The notes below the pieces were generated by a model, which worked only from the letters and a program-made list of their open reading frames with translations, did no database searches and was not told the origin of the DNA. Below, in pieces: positions 530 to 16,346 of a DNA stretch of 16,951 bases. Where the stretch lies: UHGV virus genome UHGV-0280597; one strand, given 5' to 3'. The first letter of the stretch is position 1; every line of letters begins with the position of its first letter. Position numbers and translations under genes: made by a program. Source of the DNA: a virus.

Positions 530-730
530 TTACCCATTGGCGCGGCTTAAGAGCTTATTTTTGAATTCACAATGGTCACGATATAACCATCTTGCTCGTC
601 CGTGGATAACTTTGGCTTTAGGCAGGTCGCCGGACTTAATCCGGTCATAGATGAAGGTCTTACCGAAGCCAGTATCAGCCATGATGAATTTCAAATCAAC
701 CAGTGAATCAGGTTGTAGTTCGTGTTGCAT
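530..730 (-). CDS. AlpA/Xis-like small DNA-binding protein (putative excisionase or regulator), 66 aa
   Basis: ORF-track ORF; small basic protein with a central segment (TGFGKTFIYDRIKSGDLPKAKVIHGRARW) resembling AlpA/Xis-family helix-turn-helix proteins from recall; located at the left end of the early-left operon. Confidence 0.5.
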   Translation of the reverse strand: MQHELQPDSLVDLKFIMADTGFGKTFIYDRIKSGDLPKAKVIHGRARWLYRDHCEFKNKLLSRANG

Positions 731-852
731 GAGTGCTATCTCCGAATATGGAATCGAACCTGCAAATCAGGCAATAAAAAGCCGCATTGATGCAGCAATG
801 GTAGGTCTGGATATCTTGAGAAATGAACAGGCCTCATCGAGTGTGAGGCGGG

Positions 853-1207: not shown

Positions 1208-1235
1208 CATAAAACAAAACTCGCCGTAGCGAGTT
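1208..1235 (-). terminator. intrinsic terminator (leftward), first of a tandem pair
   Basis: Perfect stem ACTCGC/GCGAGT (1219-1224/1229-1234) with loop CGTA; on the minus strand the hairpin is followed by UUUUGUUUUAU. Confidence 0.5.
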
Positions 1236-1238
1236 CAG

Positions 1239-1266
1239 ATAAAAGAAAACCCGCACTCGGCGGGTT
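1239..1266 (-). terminator. intrinsic terminator (leftward), second of a tandem pair
   Basis: Perfect 7-bp stem AACCCGC/GCGGGTT (1248-1254/1260-1266) with loop ACTCG; on the minus strand followed by UUCUUUUAU. Confidence 0.55.
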
Positions 1267-1545
1267 CGCATTCGTTCAAATTGCGTTTACTTCTTGGCGT
1301 TCTGTTCATCCATATCGATATACCATGGGTTGCTTCCCTTGGGCATGTTTAACGACTGCTCGCGATAGTATCTGATGCGCTCCATGAAATACTCGCGTGA
1401 GTGCTCAGGTTGCTCTCATGATACCTGCTCAGTGATAACAGGTATGTTAAGGCGCTCTCTGTACTCCATGCCTGATGCTGCAAGGTCAACGTTTACCTTG
1501 TTCTGTTTTTCTTTCGATTTCTCGGCGATGTTATGCCTGACATTG

Positions 1546-1788
1546 TCAACCCGCCTCCTTCTGAACATAACGGTTATAAATCAGTCCCTGAGGGCCATAA
1601 GGAAGCGGGATGTGCAACTCCTCTGGTTCAGAAACTATCCATTCTCCGGCCATCTCCGCTGGAGAGGTAATGATAAGTTGTTTGCTAATAAAAGGACCAC
1701 TCCTCTCAACAACAAGCTTACCATCTTCATTAATAAAAGCTTGGATGTCAGGTGTGCTTCCACACTTGGTGATGCAGCGTTTGAACAT
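1546..1788 (-). CDS. hypothetical protein, 80 aa from the ATG at 1788
   Basis: ORF-track ORF 1546..1830 trimmed to the in-frame ATG at 1788, which is preceded by GGGGGGA (Shine-Dalgarno-like) and lies downstream of an extended -10 element; the ATG at 1830 would lie upstream of that -10. Confidence 0.45.
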   Translation of the reverse strand: MFKRCITKCGSTPDIQAFINEDGKLVVERSGPFISKQLIITSPAEMAGEWIVSEPEELHIPLPYGPQGLIYNRYVQKEAG

Positions 1789-1811
1789 TTTGTGTCCCCC
1801 CATTTTATGTA

Positions 1812-1850
1812 CGGGGTAATTATAACACATTGAAATATAGTAATATTTGA
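1812..1850 (-). promoter_or_regulatory. candidate leftward promoter with extended -10 (TGtTATAAT)
   Basis: Minus-strand TGTTATAAT (reverse complement of plus 1819-1827) in an AT-rich intergenic segment directly upstream of the 80-aa ORF; the -35 is weak. Confidence 0.3.
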
Positions 1851-1914
1851 CGTAGATTTCTTTTGATCTATAAGCGATTTTTTAATGCTTTTAAGTTATA
1901 AATACTTGTTTTCA

Positions 1915-2586
1915 TCACCCATCTTGCTGCGGTGCTACTATTGAAAAGTGCTCACACCCTTTAGCCCAAATAGTTTTGATAGTTGTCCAACTGACTGGAA
2001 CCTTGATTTCGATTCTCCCGCTACAGTCACAAGTTTCGCAATCATCATCACCAAAGCATTCCGGGCAGCTTATAAACGTAGTTTCTGAAAATTCACCGGA
2101 TAGCACACCCTTAGCGCCGTTCTCGGCTGTTAGTCTCTTCGGCACCATGACCCAACCATCCGGAATTACCGGAGAGTTGCCGGGTTCTTTAATGTGCAAG
2201 CGAGGCTCACCATCTTTTGGCTCAGGCCACTGGCGCTCCATGTTGATCTTCAATTTATCTTCCATAGCAGCGGTAATTTCAGCATCGCTGATGCCAGCAC
2301 GGCGCTGTGAATCCCACAACAGAAACTGCATATCAGCCCACTCGCTAAGATCGTCTGGTTCGGCTGCGGCTTCCAGTGCCTCTTTTGAGAGGTGTTTCAG
2401 TGGACCAATGGGGCCAACGCAGCCAAATGTGGAGTCAGACCATTTGGCATGCTCGTGGCGAATCTGTTCGCGTTCCAGTGATGCCAGTGCAATTCGTGCC
2501 AGTTCCATTTGTTCGCCACGAGTAAGCCCGTTTTCAAGCGGATTTTTAATGAATAATTCGATACGTTCTTTGGTAATAGTGGTCAT
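1915..2586 (-). CDS. hypothetical protein with C-terminal Cys cluster (possible zinc ribbon), 223 aa
   Basis: ORF-track ORF; AAGGTG 8 nt upstream of the ATG at 2586; C-terminal motif CPECFGDDDCETCDC; tentatively similar to phage DUF551-type proteins from recall only. Confidence 0.55.
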   Translation of the reverse strand: MTTITKERIELFIKNPLENGLTRGEQMELARIALASLEREQIRHEHAKWSDSTFGCVGPIGPLKHLSKEALEAAAEPDDLSEWADMQFLLWDSQRRAGISDAEITAAMEDKLKINMERQWPEPKDGEPRLHIKEPGNSPVIPDGWVMVPKRLTAENGAKGVLSGEFSETTFISCPECFGDDDCETCDCSGRIEIKVPVSWTTIKTIWAKGCEHFSIVAPQQDG

Positions 2587-2588
2587 AG

Positions 2589-2780
2589 CTATTTCACCTT
2601 AATCTCAACATTTCGCAGCTTTAGCTCTACTGGCAGGTCTGACTTTCCTGTTAATGCTAATGCGAGATTTTCTGGAGTAATGAGAGCAGTTATTGTTTTC
2701 CCCCTCGCCAGACGAATAATCATTCGTATCTCGCAATCGTCACATGCTCCCGGTCGAACAATTGATATTTGTCCATTCAT
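2589..2780 (-). CDS. hypothetical small protein, 63 aa
   Basis: In-frame ATG at 2780 inside ORF-track ORF 2589..2942, preceded by GGAGAG and placed 1 nt after the upstream gene's TGA; the longer 117-aa form would overlap the Ea22-like gene by about 160 nt. Confidence 0.4.
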   Translation of the reverse strand: MNGQISIVRPGACDDCEIRMIIRLARGKTITALITPENLALALTGKSDLPVELKLRNVEIKVK

Positions 2781-2781
2781 C

Positions 2782-3411
2782 TCACTCTCCTTTGATGCGA
2801 ATGCCAGCGGCGCGCTCGGCTTCACTTTGTTCCCAAAACCACTTGTGAAGCGCCATAAGCTTTTCGTCAATCGGTGCATATTTGCGATTAAAGTAGGCCT
2901 GAGCATCTTTCTCAGATTCGTCCGGTAATTCGCCAGGGCCAAACAGTGTGTTATAAATCCATGCCAGTCCGCTTTTAGCGTCGCCAGTCGATTGCCATTC
3001 GATAATGGCAGCTTGCATGACCAGAATGTTTTTCCCGATTAATAGGTCCAGTTCTTTGTACCGGTTGCGGATGTATGCATTCTCGCTTTGTAATTTTGCG
3101 TTGCGATTCTCTGCTGCTTCCAGCTCAACACGCAGCTTCCCTACCGTTAGCGCAATTTCCTCGTTCTCCTGGTCGCGGGATTTGATGTATTGCTGGTTCC
3201 TTTCCCGTTCATCCAGTAGTGCCAAAGCAATCTTTGGATTAAAGGCAGCAATAAATTCAGCGTTGTTTTTCAGAACGTGTTGCGCAATGGCCTGACTACT
3301 TAGTCGGACCTCATAACCTCGTGCGCCACGGTGTGGTTTATATGAGTCCCAGTCTCCCCACGTTGCTTTCTCTGCCACATCACGCAGTGCCTGATAGTTA
3401 ATTTCGCTCAC
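2782..3411 (-). CDS. Ead/Ea22-like protein, about 209 aa
   Basis: ORF-track ORF 2782..3432; likely start is the GTG at 3411 preceded by AAGGAGG with a 6-nt spacer; coiled-coil segment ([33 protein letters not shown]) recalls lambda Ea22-family proteins. Confidence 0.55.
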
Positions 3412-8428: not shown

Positions 8429-9145
8429 TCAAACCAGCCTTAGTTTTGTCTCAATTGCAACGCCTATAATCTTGCAGTTTCCATTGATTGGCACGAGAGG
8501 CCATGCAGGGTTAAGTCCCTTGAGGTATTTATTTCCGCCGTCGATTATCAGCTTCTTGAATGTTGCTTCGTTAGAGTCAGAAAGTTTTGCTATGACCAAG
8601 CTGCCGTTGATCGCCTCCCTTCCGGTATCGAAAAGAACGAATGTTCCCTCTGGAATGCTTAACCCAACCGGTGCCGTCATTGAATCACCTTCCACTTTAA
8701 GCCAGAACGCATTACCTTGAATATGCGCGTCAGACTCAAGCCAAACATCTATGTCTTTAATGGTGTATGGTTCGCATGCTTCACACCACGAGCCAGCCTG
8801 GATACTGCTTAACACCGGATACCTCTTTCCTGCTCTGTATTCCCCTGCATACCTTACGTTGGCATCGCTCTTAAGGCTTTCTGCCTGTTCTGCAACCTTG
8901 GCAGCAATTGACTGGCTAAAATCAGCAATTGAGACTTGCAACAATCGTGCAAAACCAGATGCAACCTCAACGTTTAGCGCGTTTCTGCCATTAAGATAAT
9001 GCCCTACCGCTCCTTGGGTGATACCCAGTTCATCAGCGATTGAGTATTGGGTTATTCCCAATTCTTTCTTTTTTGACTCATACAAAGCCTTAAGCCGCTT
9101 AGCGTCTTCGAGCTGTTCTGTCGTCAGTGATTTTTTATTTTCCAT
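8429..9145 (-). CDS. cI: CI-like prophage repressor (HTH N-domain plus LexA/S24-type autocleavage C-domain), 238 aa
   Basis: ORF-track ORF; N-terminus MENKKSLTTEQLEDAKRLKALYESKKKELGITQ parallels lambda CI (recall); GDSM serine motif in the C-domain; divergent from cro across a 106-bp operator region; no Shine-Dalgarno before the ATG (leaderless-type start). Confidence 0.9.
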   Translation of the reverse strand: MENKKSLTTEQLEDAKRLKALYESKKKELGITQYSIADELGITQGAVGHYLNGRNALNVEVASGFARLLQVSIADFSQSIAAKVAEQAESLKSDANVRYAGEYRAGKRYPVLSSIQAGSWCEACEPYTIKDIDVWLESDAHIQGNAFWLKVEGDSMTAPVGLSIPEGTFVLFDTGREAINGSLVIAKLSDSNEATFKKLIIDGGNKYLKGLNPAWPLVPINGNCKIIGVAIETKLRLV

Positions 9146-15111: not shown

Positions 15112-15296
15112 ACGCCACAATTCAAACGATACCAGAGCTTCTTATCCAGACACGAGGCAATCAGACCGAAGTGGCGAGGATGCTTTCCTGCGCAAGAGGA
15201 ACAGTGCTCAAGTACAACCGAGACAGCAAAGGCGAGCGTCATGTAATAGTTAACGGCGTCCTGATGGTCAAACAGGGCAAGAGGGGAAGACGATGA
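15108..15296 (+). CDS. ninH: NinH-like small DNA-binding protein, 62 aa
   Basis: ORF-track ORF; GNQTEVARMLSCARGTVLKYNRDSKGERHVIVNGVLMV resembles lambda NinH (recall); overlaps the rusA stop. Confidence 0.75.
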   Translation: MNATIQTIPELLIQTRGNQTEVARMLSCARGTVLKYNRDSKGERHVIVNGVLMVKQGKRGRR

Positions 15297-15916
15297 GACT
15301 CGAAAGCGTAGCTAAATTTCATTCGCCAAAAAGCCCGATGATGAGCGACTCACCACGGGCCACGGCTTCTGACTCTCTTTCCGGTACTGATGTGATGGCT
15401 GCTATGGGGATGGCGCAATCACAAGCCGGATTTGGAATGGCTGCATTCTGCGGTAAGCATGAACTCAGCCAGAACGACAAACAAAAGGCTATCAACTATC
15501 TGATGCAATATGCACACAAGGTATCGGGGAAATACCGTGGTGTGGCAAAGCTCGAAGGAAATACTAAGGCAAAGGTACTGCAAGTGCTCGCAACATTCGC
15601 TTATGCGGATTATTGCCGTAGTGCCGCGACGCCGGGCGCAAGATGCAGAGATTGCCACGGTACAGGCCGTGCGGTTGATATTGCCAAAACAGAGCAGTGG
15701 GGGAGAGTTGTTGAGAAAGAGTGCGGAAGATGCAAAGGTGTCGGCTATTCAAGAATGCCAGCAAGCGCCGCATATCGCGCTGTAACGATGCTAATCCCAA
15801 ACCTTACTCAACCCACCTGGTCACGCACTGTTAAGCCGCTGTATGACGCTCTGGTGGTGCAATGCCACAAAGAAGAGTCAATCGCAGACAACATTTTGAA
15901 TGCGGTCACACGTTAA
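15293..15916 (+). CDS. Q: Q late-gene antiterminator, 207 aa
   Basis: ORF-track ORF; sequence MRLESVAKFHSPKSPMMSDSPRATASDS...CRDCHGTGR...CGRCKGVG matches my recollection of lambda Q very closely; followed by a pR'-like promoter and terminator. Confidence 0.9.
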   Translation: MRLESVAKFHSPKSPMMSDSPRATASDSLSGTDVMAAMGMAQSQAGFGMAAFCGKHELSQNDKQKAINYLMQYAHKVSGKYRGVAKLEGNTKAKVLQVLATFAYADYCRSAATPGARCRDCHGTGRAVDIAKTEQWGRVVEKECGRCKGVGYSRMPASAAYRAVTMLIPNLTQPTWSRTVKPLYDALVVQCHKEESIADNILNAVTR

Positions 15917-16190: not shown

Positions 16191-16265
16191 GGGTCAGTCG
16201 TATAAAGGTCATTACGGAAGGCTGTTAACCTTCTTATCGTGGTTCGAGTCCACGCTGTCCCGCCA
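16191..16265 (+). tRNA. tRNA-like gene, anticodon GTT (Asn), 75 nt with encoded CCA
   Basis: Manual fold: acceptor GGGTCAG/CTGTCCC (one U-U mismatch), D-arm GTAT/TTAC (one mismatch), anticodon stem GAAGG/CCTTC with loop CTGTTAA, T-arm CGTGG-TTCGAGT-CCACG, discriminator G, CCA. Confidence 0.5.
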
Positions 16266-16270
16266 AATAT

Positions 16271-16346
16271 GCTGGTTTAGCTCCAATGGTAGAGCAGTCG
16301 CCTTGTAAGCGAATGGGTAGCGGTTCAAGTCCGTTAACCAGCACCA
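16271..16346 (+). tRNA. tRNA-like gene, anticodon TGT (Thr), 76 nt with encoded CCA
   Basis: Manual fold: perfect 7-bp acceptor GCTGGTT/AACCAGC, D-arm GCTC-CAATGGTA-GAGC, anticodon stem GTCGC/GCGAA (one mismatch) with loop CTTGTAA, T-arm AGCGG-TTCAAGT-CCGTT, discriminator A, CCA. Confidence 0.6.

Follow-up and report, generated by a model that had tools for sequence, protein, structure and literature searches.

Introduction

The accessory elements most similar to the locus described here are the morons of lambdoid phages, a class defined with examples such as gene 15 of HK97 and bor and lom of lambda (PMC3594210). An element of this type is expected to carry its own promoter just upstream of its cargo and its own factor-independent terminator, to be present in some related phages and absent from others while appearing on different backbones, to differ from its surroundings in GC content, and to be transcribed while the prophage is repressed. 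[quoted passage not shown]

Here we describe a locus that bears on both systems, found in the virus genome UHGV-0280597 (16,951 nucleotides, the whole of which is referred to below as the window). A sequence-only reading had delimited positions 1208-1914 as an independent promoter-to-terminator unit at the left end of the early operon, possibly a regulatory or toxin-type module with an antisense promoter, and each of the elements that it named is present where it was placed. Our analysis leads to a different account of several of them: in our reading, 1208-1957 is an accessory cassette of the moron type, located distally in the early-left (pL) operon of a prophage of the lambdoid group, with what appears to be a sigma-70 start and a terminator of its own, and we put the probability of this reading at roughly 0.6.

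Results

A mobile cassette lies beside the excisionase gene

The prophage is inserted beside dsdC, its excisionase is torI, and the region is oriented as the pL operon throughout. In this E. coli lambdoid prophage the cassette consists of a conserved putative promoter, a small gene (orf80), a dead gene of the theta/Hot family and terminators; apart from the cassette gene and the pseudogene, the region is ordinary prophage mosaic. The unit does not form the left end of the operon, as had been proposed, because a 114-aa gene and then torI follow on its 3' side. Expression of torI by itself suffices for excision (PMC2951348).

Across 1200-1950 the sequence is 100% identical in E. coli 1223 and CUVET20-1667, and ETEC4089 is a further strain with an identical cassette. 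Among 5426 genomes of E. coli, 84 contain the cassette at 98.5% identity or more. It is joined to three different int/xis modules and to varied upstream genes, and is missing from phage 2851 and HK022, both of which share the flanking 114-aa gene; members of the orf80 family are found, in addition, in the nin region or after the replication genes. This distribution, present or absent among related phages and placed on different backbones, is that of a moron. The last 14 codons and the stop of the upstream 223-aa gene (1915..1957, minus strand) travel with the cassette, and the junction in one locus (L020), together with the point at which homology ends in cassette-free genomes, places the right recombination boundary near 1957. 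The right edge of the E. coli cassette falls about 45 nt within the upstream ORF, and not at the spacer, a point against our reading. Base composition is another, as it does not set the coding part apart, with orf80 and the theta gene at a GC content of 0.42-0.49 versus 0.44-0.55 for their neighbours; the spacer alone is AT-rich, as first described, at 0.26 over 1801-1920.

orf80 is a rare, conserved cargo gene

The cargo gene, orf80 (1546-1788, minus strand), specifies an 80-aa protein predicted to form a small six-stranded beta-barrel. Its Shine-Dalgarno sequence, GGGGGGA (1801..1795, minus strand), stands 6 nt ahead of the ATG at 1788, so the ORF and ribosome-binding site of the earlier annotation are both in place, and PGAP calls an identical 80-aa product. 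Most alleles read GGGGAGA at this site, and a purine-rich Shine-Dalgarno sequence occupies the same position in all orf80 lineages.

The protein matches phrog_9613 end to end (E 2.6e-50, PHROG), a family that carries no annotation in PHROGs. Searching 1.84 billion proteins with a profile recovered three additional lineages, and the homologues share 45-63% protein identity. Comparison with the Citrobacter copy gives a dN/dS of about 0.15-0.19 (dS ~1.3), and an AF2 model with a pLDDT of 81.6 predicts a small, soluble beta-barrel. Together, the dN/dS, the three further lineages and the confidence of the model establish orf80 as a genuine gene. The family is very rare and prophage-restricted, with members in Escherichia, Citrobacter, Pectobacterium and metagenomes. 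No match was obtained in Pfam, NCBIfam or PADLOC, with the orf80 profile against PDB sequences, or by tblastn against 50,697 phage records, and no relatives were found among 185,579 species-representative genomes. The present work extends the membership of phrog_9613 to Citrobacter, Pectobacterium and metagenomes, and adds to it signs of purifying selection, a beta-barrel as the predicted fold, and a putative promoter that is conserved.

Polymorphism in orf80 among the near-identical copies of E. coli amounts to 6 synonymous versus 13 non-synonymous differences. The gene is disrupted in several alleles (L007, L014 and P0127-P0129), and selection acting on it nowadays may therefore be weak. The protein is hydrophilic and slightly acidic and contains no hydrophobic stretch of the kind expected of a small membrane-active toxin. 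These properties, the lack of a PADLOC match and the origin of a neighbouring 32-aa ORF in the theta gene (see below) leave the suggested toxin-type module without support.

A conserved promoter architecture precedes orf80

Extended -10 (TGn) sigma-70 promoters in which a regulator binds, in the class II manner, across the -35 position are well established in E. coli. The AT-rich regulatory spacer (1789-1914) appears to contain an orf80 promoter of similar layout. We confirm the minus-strand extended -10 element, TGTTATAAT, at 1827..1819, upstream of orf80; its TGnTATnnT pattern is kept in five lineages and would place the transcription start near 1811-1813. There is no recognisable -35 hexamer. 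The -10 motif by itself is not significant, since TGNTATAAT has a single occurrence in the 17-kb window where 0.55 would be expected, and at least one copy is present in 84 of 200 shuffles; likewise, a scan for consensus promoters returned fewer matches than the shuffles. The support for the promoter and its inferred start is thus comparative, not statistical within the window.

What the comparison adds is an 11-bp box, AATCTACGTCA (1848..1858, minus strand), that would span about -46 to -36 and be centred near -41, and that we presume to be a candidate regulator-binding site. Its CTACGTC core does not vary across five lineages, at a protein identity of only 45-63%, and always lies 29-30 nt upstream of the TG of the -10 element. 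A partner half-site, TAGAT, lies at 1866-1870. The box occurs a single time in the window, whereas Pectobacterium and a metagenome lineage (L075) have two copies of it at a distance of 21 bp. When IMG/VR was scanned with a loose box/-10 pattern, those matches that were listed were mostly chance occurrences, and under a stricter filter the full architecture was seen, among the 120 matches listed, only ahead of orf80-family genes. We know of no regulator motif that the box matches, and a literature search on its sequence returned unrelated primers only. The diversity of the spacer within E. coli is given no weight here, since a pattern taken from that same spacer served to choose the loci. Folding of the orf80 5' untranslated region is not unusual (z 0.0). 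An inverted repeat pairs 1816-1826 with 1895-1905, and is only partially conserved in the Citrobacter copy.

The placement of a promoter just upstream of the cargo agrees, at the level of sequence, with what is expected of a moron. The strongest competing account, which we nonetheless hold to be unlikely, dispenses with this promoter altogether: orf80 and the theta remnant would be ordinary distal pL genes that receive only antiterminated expression after induction, and the spacer would be a recombination junction or linker. The co-orientation of the whole region with the pL operon, the mosaic junctions on either side, and a promoter that lacks a -35 element and has a -10 motif at chance frequency are all as this account would have them. 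It does not explain, however, why the extended -10 element and its spacing from the box should be kept across five diverged lineages, or why family members that reside in other operons, in the nin region and after the replication genes, retain the same upstream sequence. In one Pectobacterium locus (L077), moreover, the upstream neighbours lie on the opposite strand and nothing co-oriented precedes the orf80 homologue, which indicates that the gene there needs a promoter of its own.

One of two terminators belongs to the cassette

Both of the tandem intrinsic terminators reported earlier are found on the minus strand, as hairpins at 1267..1247 and 1236..1217 that are each followed by a T-tract. 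Terminator 2, the first to be reached (hairpin 1247-1267 plus U-tract, 1237..1267; -12.4 kcal/mol, z -2.3), begins 20 nt past the theta stop codon, and terminator 1 (hairpin 1217-1236 plus U-tract, 1208..1236; -11.9 kcal/mol, z -3.4) lies upstream of the 114-aa gene. Two sites compare with 2.0 expected over the whole 2-kb scan. The comparative histories of the two differ. The sequence of terminator 1 recurs in phage 2851 and HK022, both without the cassette, and terminators that stand upstream of the 114-aa gene in this way are therefore not cassette-specific; judged by its distribution, terminator 1 is an element of the phage backbone and not of the cassette. In one locus (L070) it carries two substitutions, both of which produce G.U pairs. 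Terminator 2, by the same kind of comparison, is the cassette's own: it resembles AACCCGCCCTGTGCGGGTTTTTT, located directly 3' of the Pectobacterium orf80 homologue, and homology to cassette-free Stx phages ends at 1252. The orf80 homologues of Pectobacterium and of the metagenome lineage L075 are each followed immediately by an intrinsic terminator, so that a factor-independent terminator of the kind found in morons accompanies the gene in these lineages as well.

The proposal of an independent promoter-to-terminator unit is supported, and on firmer ground than the first reading could offer. The -10 element and box conserved in five lineages, the terminators directly behind the gene in two of them and the opposite-strand neighbours in the Pectobacterium locus speak for it; terminator 1, as a piece of backbone, has to be removed from the unit.

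An antisense RNA from the plus strand is not supported

The same spacer had been proposed to hold a plus-strand promoter, TTGACG-16-TATAAG, that would drive antisense transcription into the 223-aa gene. The hexamers are indeed present (1847-1874, with TTGACG at 1847-1852 and TATAAG at 1869-1874), but the pair is unsupported as a promoter: TTGACG is the reverse complement of the conserved box, and TATAAG lacks the critical final T and is not conserved, being replaced by TATGAG or TATGAA in relatives. A further, weak candidate, TTGAAA-17-TAGATT (1830..1858, plus strand), is arranged back-to-back with the orf80 promoter and is kept in three of five lineages, with degraded -10 hexamers in L075 (TAGGTT) and L079 (TAGAAA).

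These hexamer pairs are the basis for reading the locus as a toxin or regulatory module in which an antisense RNA from either pair controls the 223-aa gene or orf80. Both pairs exist, the conserved box overlaps both, and the second has persisted in three lineages; we nevertheless regard such a module as improbable. The invariant plus-strand GACGTAG falls mostly in the spacer of TTGAAA-17-TAGATT, and not in its hexamers. No plus-strand terminator was found before 2528, folding of the putative RNA is unremarkable (z -0.24), and Rfam yielded only two distant tRNAs at the gathering threshold and only sub-threshold chance matches in a permissive scan of 1100-2100. An antisense RNA with a conserved promoter and terminator, as in a type I toxin-antitoxin pair, was thus not seen. 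Upstream gene content, in addition, varies by lineage and so provides no common antisense target, and neither small ORF has the features of a toxin, orf80 being hydrophilic with no membrane segment and the 32-aa ORF being a theta fragment.

The stretch behind orf80 is a theta/Hot pseudogene

About 280 nt downstream of orf80 had been described as having no long ORF. This stretch is a pseudogene of the DNA polymerase III theta/P1 Hot family, whose 93 codons (1287..1568, minus strand, as a conceptual translation) form one frame that is open except for one in-frame TGA. When R is put in place of this stop, the translation matches Pfam DNA_pol3_theta (PF06440) at E 3e-29 (100.9 bits versus a cutoff of 34.6), and it matches the PDB entry for HOT, 1SE7, at E 2.7e-29. 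The TGA is codon 51 (1418..1416, minus strand); this codon is CGA (Arg) in three relatives (L014, L020 and L024), and R occupies the position in every 85-aa homologue. The possible 32-aa ORF (1287..1385, minus strand) is the C-terminal piece of the theta frame, read from an internal Met. RNA folding does not stand out here, the theta remnant having a z of -1.4.

Alignments of the DNA to intact theta genes, and likewise to the copy in Citrobacter, locate the ancestral start in the region 1534..1559 (minus strand), with a Shine-Dalgarno sequence AGGAGG at 1559..1554 and an ATG at 1543..1541. The Shine-Dalgarno sequence lies inside orf80, and the ATG sits 2 nt past its stop (stop-CA-ATG), an arrangement by which the theta/Hot gene is judged to have been translationally coupled to orf80 at one time. 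A 1-nt deletion, the loss of a C, after ATGTCAGG (codon 3/4) now puts the original start out of frame, such that a 16-aa product would result, where the homologues begin with MSGHNIAEK. On the evidence of these alignments, the gene is dead through this deletion and the CGA>TGA change at codon 51; no intact, translatable theta frame remains, and PGAP annotates the gene as "pseudo, internal stop" in all five genomes examined. One apparently intact theta protein with W at position 51 (P0001) was rejected, as it is the same TGA read under another genetic code.

Across 37 loci the theta frame is open in only one (L014), and orf80 is intact in about 33. The lesions in the remaining theta loci include TGA51, an extra TAG, a 2-nt deletion, a C-terminal frameshift and truncation, and their variety indicates that the gene has decayed independently. 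Polymorphism in theta, at 5 synonymous versus 15 non-synonymous differences, looks neutral-like. We consider it improbable that theta still functions, through UGA read-through at codon 51 from an ATG at 1568 or as a 50-aa N-terminal fragment acting on epsilon, within what would be an orf80-Hot replisome module. In favour of this account, TGA is the common allele and is spread across many prophages, the frame past it is still open, linkage of orf80 to theta is seen in E. coli and in Citrobacter alike, and P1 Hot sets a precedent for replacing theta and stabilising epsilon. Against it, the original start is out of frame, and the ATG at 1568, which is in frame, lacks a Shine-Dalgarno sequence. 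Most substitutions beyond the stop are non-synonymous, a second stop among them; other frameshifts are present in sister alleles, the copy in Citrobacter is cut short, and in Pectobacterium and the metagenome lineages the gene is missing entirely. The stop also removes the region aligned to the third helix of HOT.

Discussion

The reading that we favour, a moron-type cassette with its own start and terminator, suggests how the locus would operate. In a lysogen, sigma-70 RNA polymerase would initiate near 1812 with no need of pL, probably under the control of a factor bound to the upstream box. The resulting transcript would yield orf80 and end at both terminators, which would in turn shield the 114-aa gene and torI from this transcription. 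During lytic growth, antiterminated pL transcripts would traverse the entire region. The theta remnant would serve today only as a 3' untranslated region, with orf80 the cargo that has been kept.

An apparently ORF-free regulatory stretch is hereby reclassified as a pseudogene, and what the cassette really carries is a small protein, both rare and conserved, with a promoter architecture common to three enterobacterial genera. For phage biology, the cassette offers a compact and testable moron, composed of a 126-nt promoter fragment, one box and one 80-aa protein. It further presents a small natural experiment, in which a prophage copy of Pol III theta/Hot has been inactivated several independent times and its neighbour retained. 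More speculatively, and with correspondingly little confidence, the orf80 family could represent a regulated lysogenic-conversion gene that has so far escaped notice, in which a host or phage factor at CTACGTC (class II-type, near -41) activates a beta-barrel protein that acts on the host replisome or on incoming phages. Ancestral coupling to theta would then mark the proofreading complex of Pol III as the likely target, and theta would have been lost repeatedly because a phage theta made constitutively is selected against in lysogens.

Three known systems bracket the cassette. The putative promoter resembles extended -10 promoters with a class II-type site in its TGn and TATAAT-like hexamer with no -35 match, and in a conserved box whose centre lies about 41 bp ahead of the inferred start, but differs from them in that the box is not palindromic. 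The theta remnant is close to P1 Hot and E. coli HolE, with about 70% identity to Hot over the translation of 1287-1568 (tblastn, 71 aa), and differs in its frame, here broken by TGA51 and the shifted start; its position also differs, since two further E. coli prophages that were examined have their intact theta genes within the nin region, whereas the copy here lies beside xis. From the lambdoid morons the cassette departs in having a coding GC content that is not distinct from that of its neighbours, in residing in the early-left operon beside xis and not in a late operon, and in carrying a second, decayed passenger gene. It shares with them a small cargo gene with a promoter upstream and an intrinsic terminator downstream, presence or absence among close relatives, and movement between backbones and positions.

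Setting of the region in a lambdoid prophage

The window corresponds to the left arm of a lambdoid prophage and opens, at 1-344, with the 3' end of dsdC, a host gene. The excisionase gene torI (530-730, minus strand) comes next, then a 114-aa gene (853-1197; phrog_1229); beyond the studied region (1208-1957) lie early-left genes for a dATP/dGTP pyrophosphohydrolase-domain protein, Ead/Ea22, Gp157 and RecT, then a CI-type S24-peptidase/HTH repressor gene (8429-9145) and plus-strand replication and nin-region ORFs. Because torI and the 114-aa gene flank it on one side and early-left genes on the other, the region sits distally within the leftward early operon and does not end it. The 223-aa gene (1915-2586, minus strand) is a mosaic with a junction near 2170-2180: its N-terminus is the pyrophosphohydrolase (DUF550) domain, and its C-terminal ~80 residues share 90-100% DNA identity with Ead/Ea22-like, DUF550- or DUF551-annotated genes of other prophages, and 88% with a 269-aa protein of a different prophage type. 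Near the right end, two adjacent plus-strand tRNA genes (16191-16262 and 16271-16343; Rfam, 55 and 61 bits) lie downstream of a 207-aa ORF (15293-15916), assigned by position as late antiterminator Q.

A dead theta/Hot gene follows orf80

The roughly 280 nt that a sequence-only reading had described as free of long ORFs proved to be a pseudogene of the DNA polymerase III theta/P1 Hot family, 93 codons in a single frame (1568..1287) with one internal TGA; the 32-aa ORF proposed there is the tail of this frame, read from an internal Met. With the stop replaced, the frame scores 100.9 bits against Pfam DNA_pol3_theta (cutoff 34.6). It aligns with PDB 1SE7 (E 2.7e-29), and tblastn over 71 aa puts its identity to phage P1 Hot at about 70%; Hot can substitute for theta and stabilise epsilon (PMC2528190). 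In each of the five E. coli genomes opened, the NCBI pipeline carries it as 'DNA polymerase III subunit theta, pseudo, internal stop'. Codon 51 is TGA in the window versus CGA (Arg) in relatives. Intact theta genes and the Citrobacter cassette copy begin MSGH... at an ATG behind AGGAGG; the ancestral ATG in the window (1543..1541) lies 2 nt past the stop of orf80, the 80-aa gene at 1546-1788 (minus strand), as is classic for translationally coupled genes. A single base has been lost directly after ATGTCAGG, so that the ancestral start yields a 16-aa peptide, and the theta body is in frame solely with an ATG at 1568 that lacks a Shine-Dalgarno sequence and lies inside orf80. The copy in the window is dead.

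A protein database entry that shows Trp for codon 51 was rejected as an intact theta, being the same TGA read in another genetic code. At the metagenome locus L074 (ENA ERZ27268499 k141_77261, 493-774), a public gene call likewise reads the TGA as Trp and reports the pseudogene as intact, 93 aa long, apparently because a gene caller applied a TGA=Trp code to a short contig; annotation artefacts of this type can hide pseudogenes. Two other E. coli prophages (L008, 2435-2689; L009, 2432-2695) have intact theta genes of 84-87 aa. These lie in the nin region, flanked by replication genes and ninB/ybcN, and each overlaps an upstream 60-aa ORF that is not related to orf80.

Theta has decayed repeatedly and orf80 has been kept

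Across 37 cassette copies from E. coli genomes and IMG/VR contigs, most carry the codon-51 TGA, joined in L032 by a neighbouring TAG. Elsewhere codon 51 is CGA and the lesion is a 2-nt deletion (L020, L070) or a C-terminal frameshift (L024 and P0002), and the Citrobacter type (L033) is truncated after ~43 residues. The theta frame is open in L014 only, where orf80 has TAG at codon 58; about 33 of the 37 copies retain an intact orf80. Polymorphism in theta (5 synonymous, 15 non-synonymous) looks neutral. Theta has thus decayed repeatedly, and orf80 has been kept. Codon 58 of orf80 (window 1615-1617) is itself polymorphic, as TTG (Leu), TGG (Trp) or TAG (stop) (L014 / L067, IMG/VR 2737471863_000004). 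In L033, a 181-aa ORF (2327-2872, minus strand) that carries hydrophobic segments at both termini and has no Pfam or PADLOC match directly follows the truncated theta; a DinI-like gene (1332-1598, minus strand) lies further on, and an IS3-type transposase gene just upstream of the cassette.

The orf80 product matches phrog_9613 end to end and has no match in Pfam, NCBIfam, PADLOC or PDB sequences. Word-indexed searching of 5.8 billion proteins returned nine clusters, nearly all E. coli variants or fragments, and none of 185,579 species-representative genomes carries the gene. Comparison with the Citrobacter copy, 63% identical, gives a dN/dS of 0.15-0.19; synonymous sites are saturated (dS about 1.3). 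Three more lineages, at 45-50% identity (Pectobacterium and two metagenomic), came from profile searching of 1.84 billion representatives, and with these AlphaFold confidently predicts a small six-stranded beta-barrel (pLDDT 81.6). We conclude that orf80 is a genuine gene, though a very rare one. The suggestion of a toxin finds no footing, as the protein is hydrophilic and matches no defence or toxin family. A 152-aa plus-strand ORF (1375-1833), antisense to the theta remnant and orf80, is treated as a by-product of the opposite coding strand.

Comparison supports an orf80 promoter and not an antisense one

Every sequence element listed in the sequence-only reading is at its described position, including an AT-rich spacer (GC 0.26), a minus-strand extended -10 (TGTTATAAT, 1827..1819), GGGGGGA 6 nt ahead of the orf80 ATG at 1788, and a plus-strand TTGACG-16-TATAAG (1847-1874). 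The perfect extended -10 occurs once in 17 kb; since 0.55 occurrences are expected and 84 of 200 shuffles hold at least one, the motif alone proves nothing. An extended -10 is kept ahead of the start codon in all five orf80 lineages (TGTTATAAT, TGTTATGCT, TGTTATGAT in two lineages, and TGATATATT), with an invariant CTACGTC box 29-30 nt upstream of its TG (AATCTACGTCA in E. coli). The window contains a single copy of the box, which is doubled, 21 bp apart, in Pectobacterium and L075 and would lie at about -46 to -36 given a transcription start 7 nt past the -10; no usable -35 hexamer is present at this promoter. Because synonymous sites are saturated between these orf80 genes, conservation of the upstream non-coding sequence implies function, and the predicted promoter is supported by comparison. 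A loose box/-10 pattern in IMG/VR gave mostly chance hits among the matches listed (120); none of those listed placed such a promoter before another gene, and only orf80 loci passed a stricter filter.

The plus-strand element had been read as an antisense promoter. Its TTGACG is the reverse complement of the conserved box, and TATAAG lacks the critical final T of a -10, relatives having TATGAG or TATGAA. A second plus-strand candidate, TTGAAA-17-TAGATT, is weak: it is kept in three lineages and degraded in two, and most of the invariant box bases lie within its spacer. The putative antisense RNA would meet no plus-strand terminator before 2528, is unstructured (z -0.24) and matches no Rfam family. 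The ORF-free RNA, antisense promoter and toxin therefore all fall away; the core idea of a self-contained unit stands.

Terminators and cassette boundaries

The two minus-strand hairpin/T-tract terminators were confirmed at 1267..1247 (terminator 2, -12.4 kcal/mol) and 1236..1217 (terminator 1, -11.9 kcal/mol). Terminator 1 and the Shine-Dalgarno sequence of the 114-aa gene are common to Stx phages and HK022, both without the cassette, and phage 2851 has its own, different hairpin at the terminator 2 position; terminators before 114-aa/xis genes thus come with the phage backbone. The cassette's own is terminator 2. Two further terminator-like hairpins (849..831 and 796..781, minus strand) lie between the 114-aa gene and torI, so that four predicted terminators precede the excisionase within about 500 nt.

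The cassette extends from about 1205/1252 to 1957, its right junction ~45 nt within the upstream ORF. Of 5426 complete E. coli genomes, 84 carry it at ≥98.5% identity. Prophages with the cassette vary in their upstream genes and include three int/xis types; the coding GC content of the cassette is not distinct from that of its neighbours. At Pectobacterium locus L077 the genes upstream run on the other strand; the Citrobacter and L079 lineages carry the unit at other sites (behind replication genes and in the nin region) and keep the same sequence ahead of it; and in Pectobacterium and L075 a strong intrinsic terminator resembling terminator 2 directly follows the gene. These arrangements fit a putative autonomous unit. 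After the orf80 homologue and terminator, Pectobacterium loci L076-L078 (3284-3760) and the metagenome lineage L075 (1163-1639) carry a conserved 158-aa gene in the position of the E. coli 114-aa gene, followed in Pectobacterium by xis and int.

A probable moron-type cassette

We propose that the extended -10 promoter, probably under a box-bound factor, expresses orf80 in the repressed prophage, and that transcription would end at terminator 2 and then terminator 1. Such termination would protect torI, whose expression alone is enough for excision in the related KplE1 system (PMC2951348). After induction, antiterminated pL transcripts would read through the region. The conserved box and the 80-aa protein are useful leads. 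Set against the published definition of a moron (PMC3594210), the cassette, with its predicted promoter and expression, agrees in all respects but GC content.
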